Part shown: piece after piece, positions 7,017 through 58,836 of the stretch
Layout of the letters: the number at the start of each line of letters is the position of its first letter
How positions within the stretch are numbered: the first letter of the stretch is position 1
From: Octopus vulgaris
Lineage: Eukaryota
Length of the DNA: 64,000 nucleotides
Assembly: GCA_951406725.2 (NCBI GenBank)
Contig: OX597823.1
Span: forward strand, 52,452,001-52,516,000
Reading direction: 5' to 3'
The notes under the pieces: model-generated
What the model saw: only the letters and a program-made list of their open reading frames with translations
The model's database searches: none
Told to the model about the DNA's origin: nothing
Translations under genes and position numbers: made by a program

Positions 7017-7280
7017 GCCTCGCCTGGCCCCCGTGCCGGTGGCACGTAAAAGCACCATCCGTTCATGGCCGTTTGCCAGCTCTGTCTGGCACCTGTGCAG
7101 GTGGCACATAAAAAGCACCCAATACACTTACGGAGTGGTTGGTGTTAGGAAGGGCATCCAGCCGTAGAAACACTGCCAGATCTGACTGGGCCTGATGAAG
7201 CCTTCCGGCTTCACAGACCCCAGTTGAACCGTCCAACCCATGCTAGCATGAAAAACGGACGCTAAATGATGATGATGATA
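7015..7280 (+). mobile_element. Repeat family D (SINE-like, RTE-type 3' end, (GAT)n tail)
   Basis: GGCACGTAAAAGCACC units, then GGAAGGGCATCCAGCCGTAGAAAC...CCAACCCATGCTAGCATG, then (GAT)n. Recurs many times in the window. Confidence 0.8.
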
Positions 7281-7349
7281 TATATATATATATGCATATA
7301 TGTACGTAAATATATGTTTTATATATATATATATGTATGTATATATATG

Positions 7350-7601
7350 TTGGACATAAGAAGCATTGGATGTGGCATGCAAAAGAGATGTTTGTGTTGG
7401 TATGGTCATGTACTACGGATGGATGAGGAGAGCTGCGTGAAGAAGTGCCACTCCCAAACAGTGGAAGAAATCCAGGGTAGTGGGAGACCCAGGAAGACAT
7501 GGGATGATGTGGTGAAGCATGACCTTCGAACATTGGGCCACACAGAGGCAATGACGAGAGACCGAGACCTCTGGAGATATGCTGTGACTGAGAAGACCTG
7601 A
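7350..7601 (+). mobile_element. RTE-clade LINE 3' fragment
   Basis: Translation WYGHVLRMDEESCVKKC...GRPRKTWDDVVKHDL...DRDLWR is a typical RTE ORF C-terminus. Confidence 0.85.
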
Positions 7602-7779: not shown

Positions 7780-8420
7780 CTTCATGCCAGTGACTTGTAA
7801 AAAGCACCATCCGAATGTGGCCAATGCCAGTACCACCTTGACTGGCTTCCATGCCAGTGGCACGTAAAAAGCAGCATCCAATCATGGTCAATGCCAGCCT
7901 ACTCTGGTCCCTTTGCTGGTGGCATGTGAAAAAAGCACCCACTACACTCTTGGAGTAGTTGGCCTTAGGAAGGACATCCAGCAGTAGAAACACTGCCAGA
8001 TCAGACTGGAGCCTGGTGCAGCTTCCTGGCTTCCCAGACTCCAGTTGAACTATCCAACCCATGCCAGCATGGAAAAAAGACATTAAACGATGATGATGAT
8101 GATGATATATATGTATCTATATATATATCTATATCATCAGTGTTTTCATTTAACGTCTATTTTCCATGCTGGCATGGGTTGGACGGTTTGACTGAGGGCT
8201 GGCAAGCCAGAAGGCTGCACCAAGCTCCAATCTGATCTGGCAAACTTTCTACAGCTGGATGCCCTTCTTTATGCCAACCACTCCGAGAGTGTAGTGGGTG
8301 CTTTTTACATGCCACCAACATGAGGGCCAGTTTAGAATTACTGGCATTAACCATACTTGAATAGTGGTTTTTACATGCCATCGGCATGTGACCCAGTCAG
8401 GTGACACTAGAAACGACCAC
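7780..8420. mobile_element. Two family D copies in inverted orientation (7780-8105 +, ~8140-8420 -)
   Basis: CCAACCCATGCCAGCATGG on +, and its reverse complement CCATGCTGGCATGGGTTGG at ~8164. Confidence 0.75.
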
Positions 8421-10200: not shown

Positions 10201-10246
<46 letters not shown>

Positions 10247-10495
10247 TTAGTCATTTATTCTTTTGCTTGCTTCAGTCATTTGACTACAGCCACGTTGGAG
10301 CACTACCTTGAGGGGCTTTAGTTGAACAAATCAACCCCAGGACTTATTTTTTTTAAGCTTAGTACTTATTTTATCAGTCTCTTTCGTTGAACTGCTAAGT
10401 TAAACACACCATCACCAGTTGTCATGCAGTATGGGGGTACAAACACAGACTCAAAGACACACACATAAATATATACATATATATATATTTTTTTT

Positions 10496-11170
10496 TATAT
10501 AATTAGGGTTCAGCAAAAAAAATTGCTTTACCACATACCGAACTTTTAGAAATAGCAGCCAAAGAATTTAGCTATTTCCTCTACTATAAGAAGAGTCTCC
10601 CAGAAACAATTTACGTAGGCATAGAGGGAAAAATAACGAAAGTTCACTCGAAATTAGATTACTTGTGAACGCGTTTCTGGGTTATAGAGATAGAGATGCT
10701 AGAAATACATACCTATTCTAACATTCCCGTCATCAGCACAAGGTTTCATTAAATTTAAATTTGAGAGCACTCAAAATCGAACATACCCATCTGATTTGAG
10801 TAACCTCAGACAAACCACCCTCGACATCCAGTACTAACAAGTTCGAAACATACGAATGAGGCTCTGCATCTTCCCCTGTCCACCCACGTGAGTTATAGAG
10901 CAACAAATTCCTACAGAGGAGTTCGTAGTTTATTATCAGGGAATGAATTATATTGTCAATAATAATAAGGGTAAAATTAATTAATTAATTAATAATTAAT
11001 AATTTTACCAAGCAGTGTTCAGTATGTAAAAGGACCATTTATGGTAAATTTATACTTTATATAATTAGGGTTCAGCAAAAAGATTTGCTTTACCACATAC
11101 TGAACTTTTTAGAAATAGCAGCTATTTCTTCTACTATAAGAAGAGTCTCCTAGACAATGTCTACTCAAAA
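10496..11170 (-). mobile_element. Non-autonomous Penelope-like/retrozyme-like element, 562-bp unit, 1.2 tandem copies
   Basis: AATTAGGGTTCAGCAAAA at 10501 recurs at 11063 (period 562). No ORF, carries a hammerhead, inserted in (TA)n, homologous to 57925-58836. Confidence 0.8.
10662..10742 (-). ncRNA. Type I hammerhead ribozyme (Penelope-type minimal stem III)
   Basis: Minus strand: CTTGTG-CTGATGA-c-GGG...(ATGTTAGAA/TTCTAGCAT hairpin)...CCC-a-GAAA-CGCG-TT-CACAAG. Perfect 6-bp stem I; palindromic ACGCGT stem III. Confidence 0.85.
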
Positions 11171-11172
11171 AC

Positions 11173-11224
<52 letters not shown>

Positions 11225-11770
11225 GGCCTCTTTCATTTTGTCTGCCAAATCCACTAACAAGGATTTGGTTGGCCCAAAGTAGAAGACACTTGCCCAAGGT
11301 GCCATGCAGTAGGACTGAACCCAAAACCATGTGGTTGGGAAGCAAGCTTCTTACCACACAACCATGCTGTAGACTTCTTTCAGTTTCCATCTACCAAATC
11401 CACTCTCAAGGCTTTGATCAGCCCAGAGATTTAGTAGAACACATTTGCCCAGTGTAACTAAACCTGAAGCAATGTGCCTTGGAAGCAAACTTCATCACTT
11501 TAAATAATTTTTCTGAAGCTCCAAATTGTTTTTTGTTATTTTGATATAATCATATTTTTTTTTGTTTATTTGTAACTGTATTTCTGATATTCTGTTCATT
11601 TCTCTTTGTTTCACTTGTTTCTTGTACAATCTTGTTATTATATTTTGTCAGTTCTTTAATTGTTTTGCTGGTGATTTATTTTTATTCATTGTTCTATATT
11701 TGCTAATTCAAAGATTTTGCTTTCTTTTATTGAAATATTGTATACATACACACATATATACATACATACA

Positions 11771-12457: not shown

Positions 12458-13626
12458 TCAGGTTGAGTAAAAAGTAGGCAACGTTTTAACCCATGAAGAA
12501 TCTGTACTGGATTTTTGCAGAGTTTTGAATTCTTTTTAAATATTTTTTTGTAATTGTCTGATAAAATAGATGTAGACTTGCCCAAATGCATCAATAAATT
12601 AACATTGATATATTTTTTTTCCTATTGTTATAATCATCTGAAATGGAACTGTCAAAGTGCGATATTTGAGCAATGTTGCTATTCAACTTCAAAAAAGGAT
12701 ATAACACAGCTGAAACTGGTCATGATATCAACAAAATGTTTGGTGAGAAAATGACCAGTGAATGGGTCAGTTCAAAAATGGTTTAAACAATTTCACAGTA
12801 GAGACCTGAGCCATGAAGATTGTGAGCATAGTCAATTAAAGACCGTCATTAAGAAAGATCCATATAAAACCACTCAAGAACTGGCAAAAGATCTTCAAGT
12901 TAGCCAGAAAATCAAAAAAGCTCAACTAATGGATACCACACGATTTGAAGGAAAATCAGAAAATGTGTAGATATGAAATTTGCTCATTCCTTCTTCTTTG
13001 TAACCAGACTGATCCATTTCTCAACTGTTTTGTAACTTGCAAAGAAAAGTGGATTCTGTACAATAATAAAAAATGTTTTTCAGTGTTTGCATCAAAATGA
13101 AAGCACCAAAAGCCTTCCCTAAAAAAGAAGGTTATGATGACTGTTTGGTGTTGTACTGCAGGACTCATCCACTATAACTTCTTAAATCTCAGAAAAACCA
13201 TTACAGCAGAAACATATTGCTATGAAATTGCCAAAATGAATGAAAAACTGCTACTCCTCTATCCCAGATTGGTCAACAGAAGACAGCCAATCATTCTTCA
13301 TGACAATGCTCATCCACACAGTTCCCAAATGACACTCCAGAAGTCGAGGAAACTTGACTACGAAGTTCTTCTCCACCCGGCTTATTCCCCAGACCTTTCT
13401 CCTACCAGCTACCACTTTTACAAACACCCTGGTTGTTTCCTAAAGTGTTCATCAGCCCCAGAACTCCAGATTCTTATGATACCAGAATAAACAAACTTAT
13501 AACTCATTGGGAAAAATGTATTGATTGTAATGGTACTTACTTTGATGAATAAAATTCCTGCCTTGTTGAAATATACTGTGGTGAATTTCATGCTTCAAAA
13601 CGTTGCTTATATTTTGCTCAGCCTGA
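12458..13626 (+). mobile_element. Mariner (DD34D) transposon, full length, degenerate
   Basis: TIRs TCAGGTTGAGTAAAAAGTAGGCAACGTTTT and AAAACGTTGCTTATATTTTGCTCAGCCTGA with TA at both ends. Confidence 0.92.
12643..13552 (+). pseudogene. Mariner transposase pseudogene
   Basis: Frameshifted motifs EKWILYNN, KKVMMTVW, ILHDNAHPH, HPAYSPDLSPTSY (third catalytic D lost) and C-terminal WEKCIDCNGTYFDE*. Confidence 0.9.
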
Positions 13627-36686: not shown

Positions 36687-37126
36687 TAATCCAAACAAGA
36701 AAACACAGAAAAAAAGAGAAAAAAAACAGCAACGCGAGGACGTGGAACAATCAAAGTATTATTGACGCTCAGGAAAGAAGGCCGAACTTCTTTCAGTTTC
36801 CATCTACCAGATCCACTCACAAGGCTTTGGTTGGCCTGAGGCTATAGTAGAAGACACTTGCCCAAAGTACCATGCAACAGGACTGAACCTGGAACCATGT
36901 AGCTGGGAAGAAAGCTTCTTACCACACAGCTACGCCTGTGGCTGATTACTTCTTCAGGTTTTGTTTTCCTTTTATAACTTATGATTAACCTTTAAATATT
37001 CAGATTACTCCTTCATATATAATGCTTATTTATTCATATTGTCTTGAAGGCAAGTATCTTCTGCTATAGCCTCAGGCCAGCCAAAACCTTGTGAGTGGAT
37101 TTGGTAGATGGAAACTGAAAAAAGCC

Positions 37127-37317
37127 CAGTTCTGTATTTAAGAGATGCTGAAATATGTACATTATTTACATTATTTACATTCGACGGCTATTTGTCCTCA
37201 CCCTGTTTGTTGTTAACACAACGTTTCAGCTGATATACCCTCCAGCCTTCTTCAGGTGTCTTGGGGAAATTTTGAACCTGGGTTCTCATTCAATGTTGTT
37301 ATTATTATTATTATTAA

Positions 37318-37348
<31 letters not shown>

Positions 37349-37443
37349 TATTATTATTATTATTGTTCAGGTTACTGCTTAGTATCGAACTTGGAATCTT
37401 GGGAGTTAGTAGCCCGCACTCTTAACCACTATGCCATATGCCC
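37127..37443 (-). mobile_element. tRNA-headed SINE carrying a hammerhead ribozyme (family H), inserted in a SINE A
   Basis: Minus strand: head GGGCATATGGCATAGTGGTTAAGAGTGCGGGCTACTAAC...AAGTTCGATAC (A and B boxes), (AAT)n, hammerhead, (ATGTAAATA)2, end CTCTTAAATACAGAACTG. Confidence 0.85.
37215..37260 (-). ncRNA. Minimal type I hammerhead ribozyme
   Basis: GACAC-CTGAAGA-a-GGCTG-gagggtatat-CAGCT-GAAA-CG-TT-GTGTT. Stem III is reduced to the palindrome ACGT. Confidence 0.85.
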
Positions 37444-37892
37444 GGTAGAATAAGTACAAGGCATGAGAAATAAGTCATGAGATCAATTTGTTTGACTAAA
37501 ACCCTTCAAGGTAGTGCTCCAGCATAGCCACGGAGAAAGAATTTGATAAGTATGGAGAGTAAGTAAGGCTGGAATATCTTTGATCAGGTCATAAATCTAC
37601 TCAATCAAAGATGACTTGAGTTTAAGCAACAATAACGACAACAAAATTTAAGAAGCCGTGATGATAGTCACAGCAGTATAAGAGATGCAATCATGTCATC
37701 CTTTTATCTCTTATTGTTTACTGGTTTCAGTCATTGGGCTATGGCCATGTTGGGGCATTATCTTGAAGAGTTTTTTTTTTAGTAGATGGAAACTGAAAGA
37801 AGCCCAGTTCTGTATTTAAGAGATGCTGAAATATGTACATTATTTACATTATTTACATTCGACGGCTATTTGTCCTCATCCTCTTTGTTGTT

Positions 37893-37938
37893 AACACAAC
37901 GTTTCAGCTGATATACCCTCCAGCCTTCTTCAGGTGTC
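37893..37938 (-). ncRNA. Minimal type I hammerhead ribozyme (duplicate, within 37782-37968)
   Basis: Identical motif, offset 678 bp from 37215-37260. Confidence 0.85.
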
Positions 37939-38282
37939 TTGGGGAAATTTCGAACCTGGGTTCTCATTTTTTTTCCAGCCTGGTACTTATTCTGTCAGAC
38001 TCTTTTGCTGAACTGCTAAGTCGTGAGGGATGTAAACACACCAACACCAGTCATCAAATGGTAGTGGGAGACAAACACAGACACAAAGACATACACATAT
38101 ATATATATATGTATATACAACAGACCACTTACACTTTCCCTCTACCAAATTCACTCAGAAGGCTTTGGTCAACTCAAACTATAGTAGATGACACTTGCCC
38201 AAGTCGCCACATGGAGACTGAACTCAGAACCATGGGGTAGGGAAGCAAGCTTCTTATCACACAGCCACACCTGTACCTCCTT

Positions 38283-46330: not shown

Positions 46331-46670
46331 CTTACTTCTGTTCAAACAGGGTCACGTTTTACAGTGAAAAACAGCTTCACATTTGCTTTGGAAAACCTAA
46401 TATATGTATTAACTTGCTCAGGGTGTCAAGAACAATACATAGGCCAAACTAAAAACAGTCTATGGCAAAAGACGACCTTACATAGATCCCAGATTAAAAT
46501 TCAAGGATACAGAAAAATAGCATTCAGTGAACACATCGACATTTGTGCCACTAACGAACAACCCAACTTCAGAATTTTTCCACTCTGTAAATTCAGGGAC
46601 GATGCAGCCTATAATCGATGCATTAGCAAAGTCATATTTTATCACAAAATATAAACTGGCCCTTATGAGC
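46331..46670 (+). pseudogene. Penelope-like element GIY-YIG endonuclease relic
   Basis: FTVKNSFTFALENLIYVLTCSGCQEQYIGQT...HRSQI...SEHID shows the NLIY-CxxC-YIGQT plus two His pattern typical of Penelope-like elements. Confidence 0.88.
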
Positions 46671-47071
46671 CAGGCATGGCTCGAGAAGGAACAAACATAA
46701 GTTTCTAACTGACCCATACCTTGCAAGTAAGATTAGTTAATGGAAACTGTACGGAAGCATGTTGTATATTCAATGATGTGTATGCATGCTTGCATACATG
46801 TGAGTACGTGTGTGTATGTGTGTTTATTTCCATGTATCTTTGCCTCTGATGCCAATTCTGTAATAATGAAATTACTTTTATATATTCTGTAAACAATTTA
46901 TCCTGTAGTTTGGCTGTTTCAGCAATTTTAATGCATGAAGACTTGTAGAATCATAATACCTTATTTCAAAAACAGATAACCGTTTAATGACAAGAAGAGC
47001 TTCTGGCCATGGAATTTTGTCTCAATAAGTCTCTTCTAACCTGTGCCAGAGAAGTAAAAGCAGAAATAAAA

Positions 47072-50293: not shown

Positions 50294-50622
50294 CAGTTCT
50301 ATATAACCACTACACCATATGCTCACAGGCATATGGTGTAGTGGTTAAGAGTGCGGGCTACTAACCTCAAGATTCCGAGTTCGATTCCAAGCAGTGACCT
50401 AAACAATAACAATAATAACAATAATAATAATAATAATAATGATAATAATAATAATAACAATAATAATGACATCGAAAAATACCTTAGGAATGAGAACCCA
50501 GGTTCAAAATTTCCCCAAGACACCTGAAGAAGACTAGAGGGTATATCAGCTGAAATGTGTTAACAGCAAACGAGATGAGGACAAATATCCGTCGAATGTA
50601 AATAATGTAAATAATGTAAATA
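50294..50622 (+). mobile_element. Family H hammerhead SINE with a 14-bp flanking direct repeat and a 5' inverted segment; ribozyme degenerate
   Basis: Head GGCATATGGTGTAGTGGTTAAG...GAGTTCGATTCC, (AAT)n, GACAC-CTGAAGA...GAAA-TGTGTT (CGT missing) at 50519-50561, (ATGTAAATA)3. AGGTACATATTGTA at 50280-50293 and 50623-50636. Confidence 0.85.
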
Positions 50623-56562: not shown

Positions 56563-57812
56563 CACAGACATGACAGAAGTAAATAGACACCTCATAAAAC
56601 ATCATTTTATGTTTTTTTTTAATTTGAATAGGTTTATTTGACATTTTCATGTTTCAGGTTTTATATGTGACTGTTTAATCATGCCACATACAAAAGAAAT
56701 CTTGGAACTGCCTGGATTTCCTAGAGACTGTATTGTGAGTCAATCTGAAGGTGGACTTCATCAGCATAAAATCACAGAAAACCGAGGGATCCTACTTTTT
56801 TCAGTTAATACATTGATTGTGCAATTCAGTGGAGAGGTAAGGAGTTCCCATCACATTGTGCAGGTCGATCAGGGATCTCTGACAGGATACTTTGCTTTGT
56901 TAAGAGAAGCGTGGAAGATAATCCTCATTGCAAAGCCTCTGGCAGAGTAGAACAAGTTGATGTCAGTCCCAGAACAGCTGTTACATATCTCTACAAACTT
57001 GGCTACTATGGAAACCACTTCTTTGACCAGCCAATTTCAAGTGGAGAAAAGATTGGGCCAGTGTAATGGGGGAGAGACCACTATATTATAGGACACTGAC
57101 ATATTCTCTGATGAGTCCAGATATGCTGTATTTTCTGACAGCGATTAGGTGTTGATCTGGAAACCTTGTGATCAAGTATTTGAAATGAAAAGATTGCAGC
57201 CAACAATGAAACACTGTGACTATTCTGTGATGGTCTGGAAGAGGAATTTGGAGCAACGTTTGATCAGAGCGGGCAGAGTGTGAGGGAAACATTGACTTAG
57301 ATAAATATGTGTCCATAATGCAGAAAGGACTCCTTCCAATCTTCTCCAGTGGTGGAATGATTAAAGAAGACACTTTATTTATGGAAGATGGGGTTTCTCA
57401 TCACATGGTTAAAAAGATCCAAGTTTGGTTGGAAGAGAATGGCATTATAAAGCTTCCATGGGCAAGCCATTCACCAGATATGAACCCTATTGAACACCTC
57501 TGGGGCATAATGGACAGGATGATTCACAAAAAGACCAAGAAAGCATCCTTAAGACCAGATCTTTTTAGATTACTGTATGAAACTTGGAAAGAAATTCCTC
57601 AAGAGAATATTTGTCATCAGATCATTAACATGCCTAATAGGGGCCTTGCATTGAAAAATGTAAAAGGCATCGCTATTAAATATTAAATATTCACATTATG
57701 ATAACTAATAAATAATTCGAATGCACAATTTCAGACTTAAGTAAATTGTAACAATTATAAGTGTGTCTGAGTATATGATGTCTACATATTCTTTTAGCCA
57801 ACACTCTCTGTT
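56563..57812 (+). mobile_element. Tc1-like (DD34E) transposon, degenerate
   Basis: Fragmented transposase 56681-57686: FSDES, VMVW, FMEDG-(34 aa)-E in WASHSPDMNPIEHLW. TIRs are poorly preserved. Confidence 0.88.
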
Positions 57813-57924: not shown

Positions 57925-57933
<9 letters not shown>

Positions 57934-58834
57934 ACGTTATATAGTTAGAGTTCAGTAAAATAATTTACTTTACCACACACTGAACTTTTAGAAATAGCAG
58001 CCAAAAAATCTTAGCTATTTCTTCTACTATAAGAAATATCTCCCAGACAATGTATACTCAAAAATAATTCACACAGGTATGGAGGGAAAAATAACAAAAG
58101 ATCACATGTACATTAAGATTACTTGAGAACGTACGTTTCTAGATTAGTTGAATTTAAAAATCAACATTTCCTTCGTTAGCTCAAAGATTTCTTAGATTTG
58201 GATTTGAGAGCACTAAGAATCGAACATACCCGTCTGATATGAGTAAACCCAGACAAACCATCTTCGACCGCCAGTACCAACGAATTCAAACAGTGCGAAT
58301 GAAGCTTTGCATTCATCCCGCTTTGTTTACTCTATAACTCACGTGGGTGGAAGTGGGATGAATGCGAAGCTTCATTTGTACTGTTTGAATTCGTTGGTAC
58401 TGGCAGTCGAAGGTGGTTTATCTGGGTTTACTCATATCAGACGGGTATGTTCGATTTTTAGTGCTCTCAAATCCAAATCTAAGAAATCTTTGAGCTGACG
58501 AAGGAAATGTTGATTTTTAAATTCAACTAATCTAGAAACGTACGTTCTCAAGTAATCTTAATGTACATGTGATCTTTTGTTATTTTTCCCTCCATACCTG
58601 CGTGAATTATTTTTGAGTATACATTGTCTGGGAGATATTTCTTATAGTAGAAGAAATAGCTAAGATTTTTTGGCTGCTATTTCTAAAAGTTCAGTGTGTG
58701 GTAAAGTAAATTATTTTACTGAACCCTAATTATATAACGTAATGTTTTAAATATACCTTAAATGGTCCTCTTACATACTGAACACTACTTGGTAAAATTA
58801 ATTTATAATTAATTGATTTTACCCTTTTATTATT

Positions 58835-58836
<2 letters not shown>
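57925..58836. mobile_element. Retrozyme-like/Penelope-derived element with an inverted 399-bp copy (palindrome)
   Basis: Arms 57925-58323 and 58351-58749, about 12 mismatches by eye, 27-nt spacer. Same family as 10496-11170; (TA)n on both sides. Confidence 0.9.
58489..58552 (+). ncRNA. Type I hammerhead ribozyme (Penelope-type), intact core
   Basis: TTTGAG-CTGACGA-a-GGA..GTTGA/TCAAC..TCT-a-GAAA-CGTACG-TT-CTCAAG; palindrome ACGTACGT. The mirror copy at 58122-58185 (-) has the core CTAACGA. Confidence 0.85.

Follow-up and report, generated by a model that had tools for sequence, protein, structure and literature searches.

The insert at 10494-11173 of the window, by which we mean the whole 64-kb stretch of DNA that was analysed, is confirmed as a real feature: a non-coding repeat that carries a hammerhead and is present as a partial head-to-tail tandem. 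With a probability of roughly 0.55, we read it as an old, decaying copy that was inserted by the reverse transcriptase and endonuclease of a Penelope-like element (PLE) and copied from an uncut tandem transcript over slightly more than one unit. The evidence for a PLE process consists of inverted 5′-truncated arms, a one-sided tail, the partial tandem and a (TA)n target. The repeat behaves like a non-autonomous PLE, and it may belong to a retrozyme-type family.

A partial tandem inserted in a SINE

The insert comprises 680 bases, which corresponds to 1.21 units (680/562) of a repeat with a period of 562 nt. Positions 10494-10604 recur at 11056-11154/11173 as a direct repeat at offset 562 (blastn E 3e-29), in agreement with the period and the tandem of about 1.2 units that a preliminary description of this DNA had given. 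Global alignment of the two repeats yielded 98 matches and 6 mismatches, with 13-14 nt missing from the 11.1-kb copy. Compared with a relative at 58 kb, the 10.6-kb copy lacks 15 nt, and at this place two public contig records (3 and 25) carry 15 gap letters; once the 15 nt, private to the 10.5-kb copy, are counted, the unit length becomes ~577 nt. The 6% divergence of the two repeats, together with the private gaps, indicates that the copy is old.

The minus strand was identified as the RNA sense from the strand of the hammerhead, from one-sided changes of the G-U type and from the folding z scores (-6.6 sense versus -4.7 antisense). Read in this direction, the insert starts with a 5′-truncated upstream repeat of 0.2 unit (11056..11173, placed by alignment to the 58-kb relative), which is followed by a 'tail' segment of ~100 nt that lies between the two 3′-end sites of the element (10956..11055). 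At the head-to-tail junction (10955..10956) the end of the tail is joined to the head of the unit (10743..10955), which lies upstream of the hammerhead and is stop-free up to the TGA of the core. The downstream repeat (10494..10604) ends at the first 3′-end site, against A9 and (TA)n. The end of the tail, internal at 10955/10956 here, is terminal at 58836 in the relative, just as the preliminary description had pointed out.

When joined, the two flanks align end to end with a SINE copy at 38.3 kb (344 matches, 80 mismatches), showing that the insert lies in the internal (TA)n of a host SINE, where the preliminary description had placed it. By resemblance, this SINE and the microsatellite-rich DNA look octopus-like. 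Alignment to the 38.3-kb copy puts the left half of this SINE, up to the internal (TA)n, at 10240..10487 (+) and the (TA)n with the right half at 11173..11370 (+; repeat families D15 and D16). Both insertions, at 10.5 kb and at 58 kb, are flanked by (TA)n on both sides, and no target duplication of the 10494-11173 insert is readable inside the microsatellite.

The 58-kb relative is a fold-back with a one-sided tail

The relative consists of two arms arranged head to head as a fold-back (57925-58836), with a 27-nt spacer and with both 3′ ends facing (TA)n. As a whole it is 74-80% identical to the 10.5-kb copy. Its sense arm (58322..58836, +) has 76-80% identity and ends 3′ in the tail, whereas the inverted arm (57925..58323, -) has no tail and is identical to the sense arm at 392 of 405 positions (inverted repeat I1). 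An adjacent inverted, 5′-truncated copy is a PLE trait, and it is present here. The hammerhead of the sense arm lies at 58489-58552 and has the core CUGACGA and a helix III of ACGUACGU; in the inverted arm, the core is broken by a change of G5 to A. At the fold-back junction (58323-58351) we observed a 3-nt microhomology (AAG), as expected from self-priming of a cDNA end. Remnants of Tc1/mariner-type DDE transposases were also detected with Pfam at 57264-57686 (+; DDE_3, E 1e-6) and 13101-13490 (+; Transposase_1, E 7e-12), the former stopping ~240 nt before the fold-back element.

Two AT-rich sites ~90-100 nt apart account for the three 3′ ends in the window: 10494 and 57925 are separated by ~12 nt on the unit and 58836 lies ~90-100 nt further on. 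Each site is preceded by a hairpin GGUAAA...ACC. The element therefore has an optional 3′ extension of ~90-100 nt, as judged from three ends only, compared with 30-40 bp for the usual PLE tail. The 5′ ends, of which three could likewise be read directly, all miss the cleavage site: that of the 10.5-kb copy lies ~62 nt downstream of it, the others ~196 and ~224 nt upstream.

A structured 3′ module (10956..11135, -) comprises a hairpin that is interrupted by a 2x2 internal loop and enclosed by a long-range helix of 11 bp, followed by a terminal AU-rich hairpin. With 200 shuffles for each copy, its folding z score is -6.6 at 10.5 kb and -5.9 at 58 kb, against -0.7 and -0.8 for the head region. 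All 33 consensus pairs are unbroken and one shows a double-sided change, from a comparison of two sequences only. We infer that this module serves as the recognition and start signal for reverse transcription. Two features are new here in a small way: the long tail, which two similar hairpins delimit, and an additional A at the stem II foot, described below.

The hammerhead motif

A type I hammerhead is located at 10742-10662 on the minus strand, with a 6-bp stem I, an intact core, a long stem II and a helix III of 1 bp with a CGCG loop. On this strand the core CUGAUGA occupies 10736-10730 and GAAA 10677-10674, helix III is formed by the palindrome ACGCGU, and the cut is predicted between 10668 and 10667, after the triplet GUU. 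The position, the 6-bp stem I and ACGCGU were all given correctly, though with no strand, in the preliminary description. Its term 'intact hammerhead' holds for the catalytic core, which is whole, but is too strong for the motif overall, with its single ribozyme, 1-bp helix III, extra bases at the stem II foot and GUU triplet.

A descriptor search (core plus a stem I of at least 6 bp) found one match in the 64-kb window, and the same descriptor found any match in 2 of 200 block-shuffled windows (mean 0.01). Rfam assigned no family at the gathering score, and no hammerhead model was among the 11 weak matches up to E=10. The conserved core CUGANGA, GAAA and UH, with helices I-III, is present and is broken only in the inverted 58-kb arm. 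At the foot of stem II, both strands carry one unpaired base in all three arms: an A inserted between 11.1 and G12 (3/3 arms) faces an extra base. In place of a G10.1-C11.1 pair directly next to G12, helix II has a G-C pair, or G-U in the relative, that is offset by this unpaired base per side. Across three arms and 10 pairs, 30 of the 30 cells pair and two pairs show double-sided changes, a comparison of three sequences two of which are 97% alike, and in which 45 of 500 shuffles reach equal values. The compensatory changes thus give the motif modest support. That two lineages with 76% identity have both kept the hammerhead suggests a role for its cleavage, and this is compatible with a circle too. 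With one hammerhead at the 10.5-kb locus, monomer release by double cleavage is not available to it, and with a 1-bp helix III the locus is predicted to cut poorly alone.

Two other types of repeat were noted in the window. A second, unrelated hammerhead family is represented at 37120-37440 (-), at 50330-50622 (+) and, as a partial copy, at 37800-37968 (-), the two long copies being 87% identical; its members show by eye a tRNA-like head, then an (AAT)n spacer and a minimal hammerhead module of the PLE type. ARAGORN at default settings found no tRNA in this head. We take the family to recall the SM-alpha repeat of Schistosoma, which combines a tRNA with a hammerhead. An inverted repeat at 7927-8309 (I23), with 177-nt arms that are 82% complementary and a 29-nt spacer, is unrelated to the 562-nt unit, and adjoins a segment (7266-7601) that is presumably the end of an RTE-like LINE.

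Coding capacity and the search for a parent

The longest stop-free frame in the element has 83 codons and no Pfam match, in line with the earlier description of the unit as ORF-less. In each of the three arms, a frame without stops runs up to the TGA of the hammerhead core, at 10736-10960 (-), 58322-58495 (+) and 58176-58331 (-). Substitutions in this head frame number 7, 7 and 12 by codon position, without a clear codon bias and with one compensating frameshift, which leaves a coding origin no more than possible. A profile search of 1.84 billion proteins revealed no PLE relatives of the frame; two profile matches proved to be summed matches to bacterial RCC1-type repeats and were rejected as chance. 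By pattern, relatives of the unit numbered 0 in metagenomes and 0 in viral contigs. A looser pattern picked out five metagenome and two viral loci, which we rejected as their similarity is confined to the 28-37 nt of the pattern region.

The same window holds a remnant of a GIY-YIG endonuclease from a PLE with a C-terminal endonuclease (46346-46684, +), 48% identical to P0003, a protein with reverse transcriptase and GIY-YIG domains and a Cys-rich linker as in Neptune-type elements. No DNA is shared by this remnant and the 562-nt unit. An ORF-containing parent sharing the unit, for which the preliminary description had suggested a search, was thus not found in the 64-kb window or in the protein, metagenome and viral collections. 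By analogy with known elements, TA targeting and the hammerhead would fit Neptune or Hydra as the parent clade.

Copies in public contigs

Parts of the stretch occur in 20 of the 24 listed public runs, none of which contains half of its words or is on record as RNA, and the contigs of four of the 24 were aligned at 80% likeness. Since the data are contigs, also for the two putative RNA runs X12 and X19, they speak neither for nor against a circle, and they yielded no entries for molecule ends. There are 2033 matching contigs in one run (X1) and 1687 in another (X2), which indicates a large family. Among the joints listed (15 of 26 in all), seven change strand, at seven different position pairs, and three of these pairs were found in both X1 and X2. 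Three strand-switch joints, 10545/10578, 10599/11097 and 10604/11167, are common to runs labelled organism A and organism B; either these insertions predate the split between A and B, or both labels stand for one species.

The highest summed word depths, 4.0-5.5e5, fall on the 3′ module, and those of the tail reach 1.4-2.0e5, compared with medians of ~4.8e3 (X1) and ~9.6e3 (X2) over the 14 bins of 10651-10972, so that cover is polar rather than flat. Contig depth is not copy number and cannot rank the parts of the element, and the 3′ word may belong to other families too. Most of the long contigs listed for X1 and X2 have a depth of 21-75, and depth is patchy, with 527 at 10918-10924 beside 14,000 at 10906 (X1). 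The profile gives weak support to polar, 5′-truncated copies. Loose ends at 10495 were seen in 11, 9 and 3 contigs among the rows listed, with a mixed consensus that is partly TA-like and partly the continuation of the relative.

At the junction, the bin 10950-10972 has depths of 2,075 and 2,528, ~50 times that of a single contig. Contig 13, which has 28 differences and so represents another copy, enters the tail by 9 letters, and contig 31 crosses the junction by 11; no listed contig bridges 10955/10956 with 31 letters on both sides. The junction is likely, if weakly shown, to be common to other copies.

How the copy may have arisen

Biochemical work on PLEs provides a framework for these observations. 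The available sections of Frangieh et al. (2024, PMC11167929) describe a PLE protein that nicks DNA rich in AT and initiates at two internal sites, the tail being the stretch between them; hammerhead mutants insert normally, and cleavage is not needed in this, the only in vitro system. On this basis, a PLE protein would bind the structured 3′ module, nick AT-rich DNA and start cDNA at one of two internal sites. A start at the first site would produce the 10.5-kb copy and the inverted 58-kb arm, and a start at the second the tailed 58-kb arm. Most runs would stop early, and some would snap back to give inverted pairs. At 10.5 kb, the run would have covered a full turn of 562 nt, passing the hammerhead and the junction, and then 118 nt more. 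Its template would be a multimer from a tandem master, and a circle would leave an identical trace.

The 'permutation' of the copy is therefore best read as the product of two fixed starts of reverse transcription and one run of 1.21 units. As the copy crosses a head-to-tail junction, its template must have supplied more than one unit, whether as a circle, as a multimer or by re-initiation on a second RNA, and we rather favour an uncut tandem transcript as the simplest source. The preliminary description had proposed reverse transcription from a circular or multimeric RNA of about 560 nt. A template longer than one unit is supported. A reading of the permutation as pointing to a circle is not supported, given 3′ ends at two sites, as in the PLE tail pattern. 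Nor can scattered permutations, the test proposed in that description, tell a circle from a linear multimer, because PLE reverse transcriptase starts at fixed internal sites on either.

A true retrozyme cycle is a possible, though less probable, source of the same copy. Tandem masters would be transcribed, paired hammerheads would cut out monomers of ~575 nt, a host ligase would close them, and a PLE protein would start at the same internal sites and overrun its start. The copy exceeds one unit, the core and stems of the hammerhead are kept across two lineages, the palindromic helix III suits dimer cleavage, and a circular form of the unit is predicted to fold well (z -5.6 from 60 shuffles). 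Circles have moreover been demonstrated for repeats of coral, mussel and axolotl in the available parts of one report (PMC7229834). However, no array with two hammerheads in the same orientation occurs in the 64-kb window, the folding signal stems from the 3′ module (head region z -0.7), and the hammerhead fold lies 6.6 kcal/mol above the predicted minimum. Furthermore, the accessible text on Xenopus dimers has 8 of 9 without cleavage (bioRxiv 10.64898/2026.07.22.740005). No scar remains after religation of a circle, and DNA sequence therefore offers no proof of one.

It is tempting to speculate that, in what appears to be a cephalopod genome, a closed hammerhead RNA of ~575 nt exists in circular form, with a Penelope-like protein copying it from two fixed start hairpins ~100 nt apart, although we consider this rather doubtful. 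If true, one family would combine a retrozyme unit with the tail and fold-back of a PLE; this would be a direct invertebrate link between retrozymes and PLEs, and a handle on whether PLE partial tandems derive from circles.

Alternatively, there may be no closed unit at all, and the insert would be two 5′-truncated stumps of a longer autonomous PLE laid down in one event, in which reverse transcription broke off at 10955 and resumed on another RNA from its second start site (the tail end). The junction is exactly the 3′ end used by the 58.8-kb copy, the stop-free frame ends at the hammerhead core in every arm, and most PLE hammerheads sit in truncated copies according to the available part of PMC4209133. 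We regard this account as improbable, in view, if weakly, of a depth past the junction that is ~50 times single-contig and of the entry of contig 13 into the tail, together with a head frame that has neither PLE relatives among the proteins searched nor a clear codon bias. A single local duplication event in the DNA, or a DNA element of the rolling-circle (Helitron/Helentron) type with a hammerhead-like string by chance, would suit the TA target and the terminal hairpins, and partial tandems also occur in such elements, but this reading is largely refuted, and highly improbable, given the rarity of the motif in shuffled windows (2/200), the compensatory changes in the relative, and the head-to-head fold-backs and strand-specific G-U changes that point to an RNA-templated PLE process.

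Comparison with known systems

The reading of the insert as a PLE-inserted copy of a tandem transcript can be set against published systems, in each case within the sections of the sources available to us. In literature listings on octopus repeats and on non-autonomous Penelope elements, we found no account of the 562-nt family; Repbase or Dfam may already contain it. The 10.5-kb copy alone is one more example and brings no new principle. As a high-copy family with two mapped 3′-end sites and a structured end module, the repeat is a usable test case for PLE tandem formation and for the role of the hammerhead.

That animal retrozymes are non-autonomous PLEs is already a published view (Li, Clavereau and Pollet 2026, bioRxiv 10.64898/2026.07.22.740005). 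In the portion available, these authors describe units of 51-972 bp related to the pLTRs of PLEs in Xenopus, define 'active' by two hammerheads, report cleavage of one of nine dimers and name the phylogenetic link as untested in invertebrates. Coral, mussel and axolotl have metazoan non-LTR retrozymes that form circles of 170-400 nt (Cervera and de la Pena 2020, PMC7229834, in part). The 562-nt element resembles such retrozymes in its non-coding, AT-rich head-to-tail unit, type I hammerhead, 6-bp helix I and short palindromic helix III. Its unit length falls within their 51-972 bp range, and a dependence on PLEs has been proposed for them in the same sources. It differs in being longer than the 170-400 nt circles, in showing 1.2 units with one hammerhead, and in its visible fold-back and tail. 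The 10.5-kb locus shares with retrozymes the lack of coding capacity; a hammerhead in at least two consecutive units is not found at this locus, to which the comparison refers, and the copy is consequently not classed as an active retrozyme.

Short non-coding elements mobilised by PLEs are also known among the Chlamys PLEs (such as MRC1), which like ours have head-to-tail insertions, and pLTRs (PMC8557442, in the part available). In contrast to the 562-nt element, the Chlamys PLEs are algal, and their clade is mostly without canonical hammerheads according to the same text.

Cervera and de la Pena (2014, PMC4209133, in part) list as traits of PLE hammerheads a palindromic helix III, a long helix II and, following A9, one extra base. 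That source also states that an unstable helix III impedes monomer cleavage, and a circular template for PLE partial tandems was already proposed there in 2014. The motif described here agrees in the extra base between A9 and 10.1, the long helix II and the palindromic helix III. It differs in its 6-bp helix I, as in canonical metazoan motifs, and in the extra A between 11.1 and G12, a place where an axolotl motif has a U-U mismatch (PMC7229834, in part).

Finally, the available accounts of EN+ PLE insertions report head-to-head inverted 5′-truncated arms, a one-sided tail, partial tandems and a (TA)n target (PMC8557442, PMC3846280). Compared with these, the 562-nt element has no RT-EN frame, and its tail of ~90-100 nt exceeds their 30-40. 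In its partial tandem, inverted 5′-truncated neighbour, tail at one end and (TA)n target, the element behaves as EN+ PLEs do (PMC8557442, PMC3846280, PMC11167929, each in part), and it further shares with them a hammerhead shortly upstream of the 3′ end and 5′ ends that lie away from the cleavage site.
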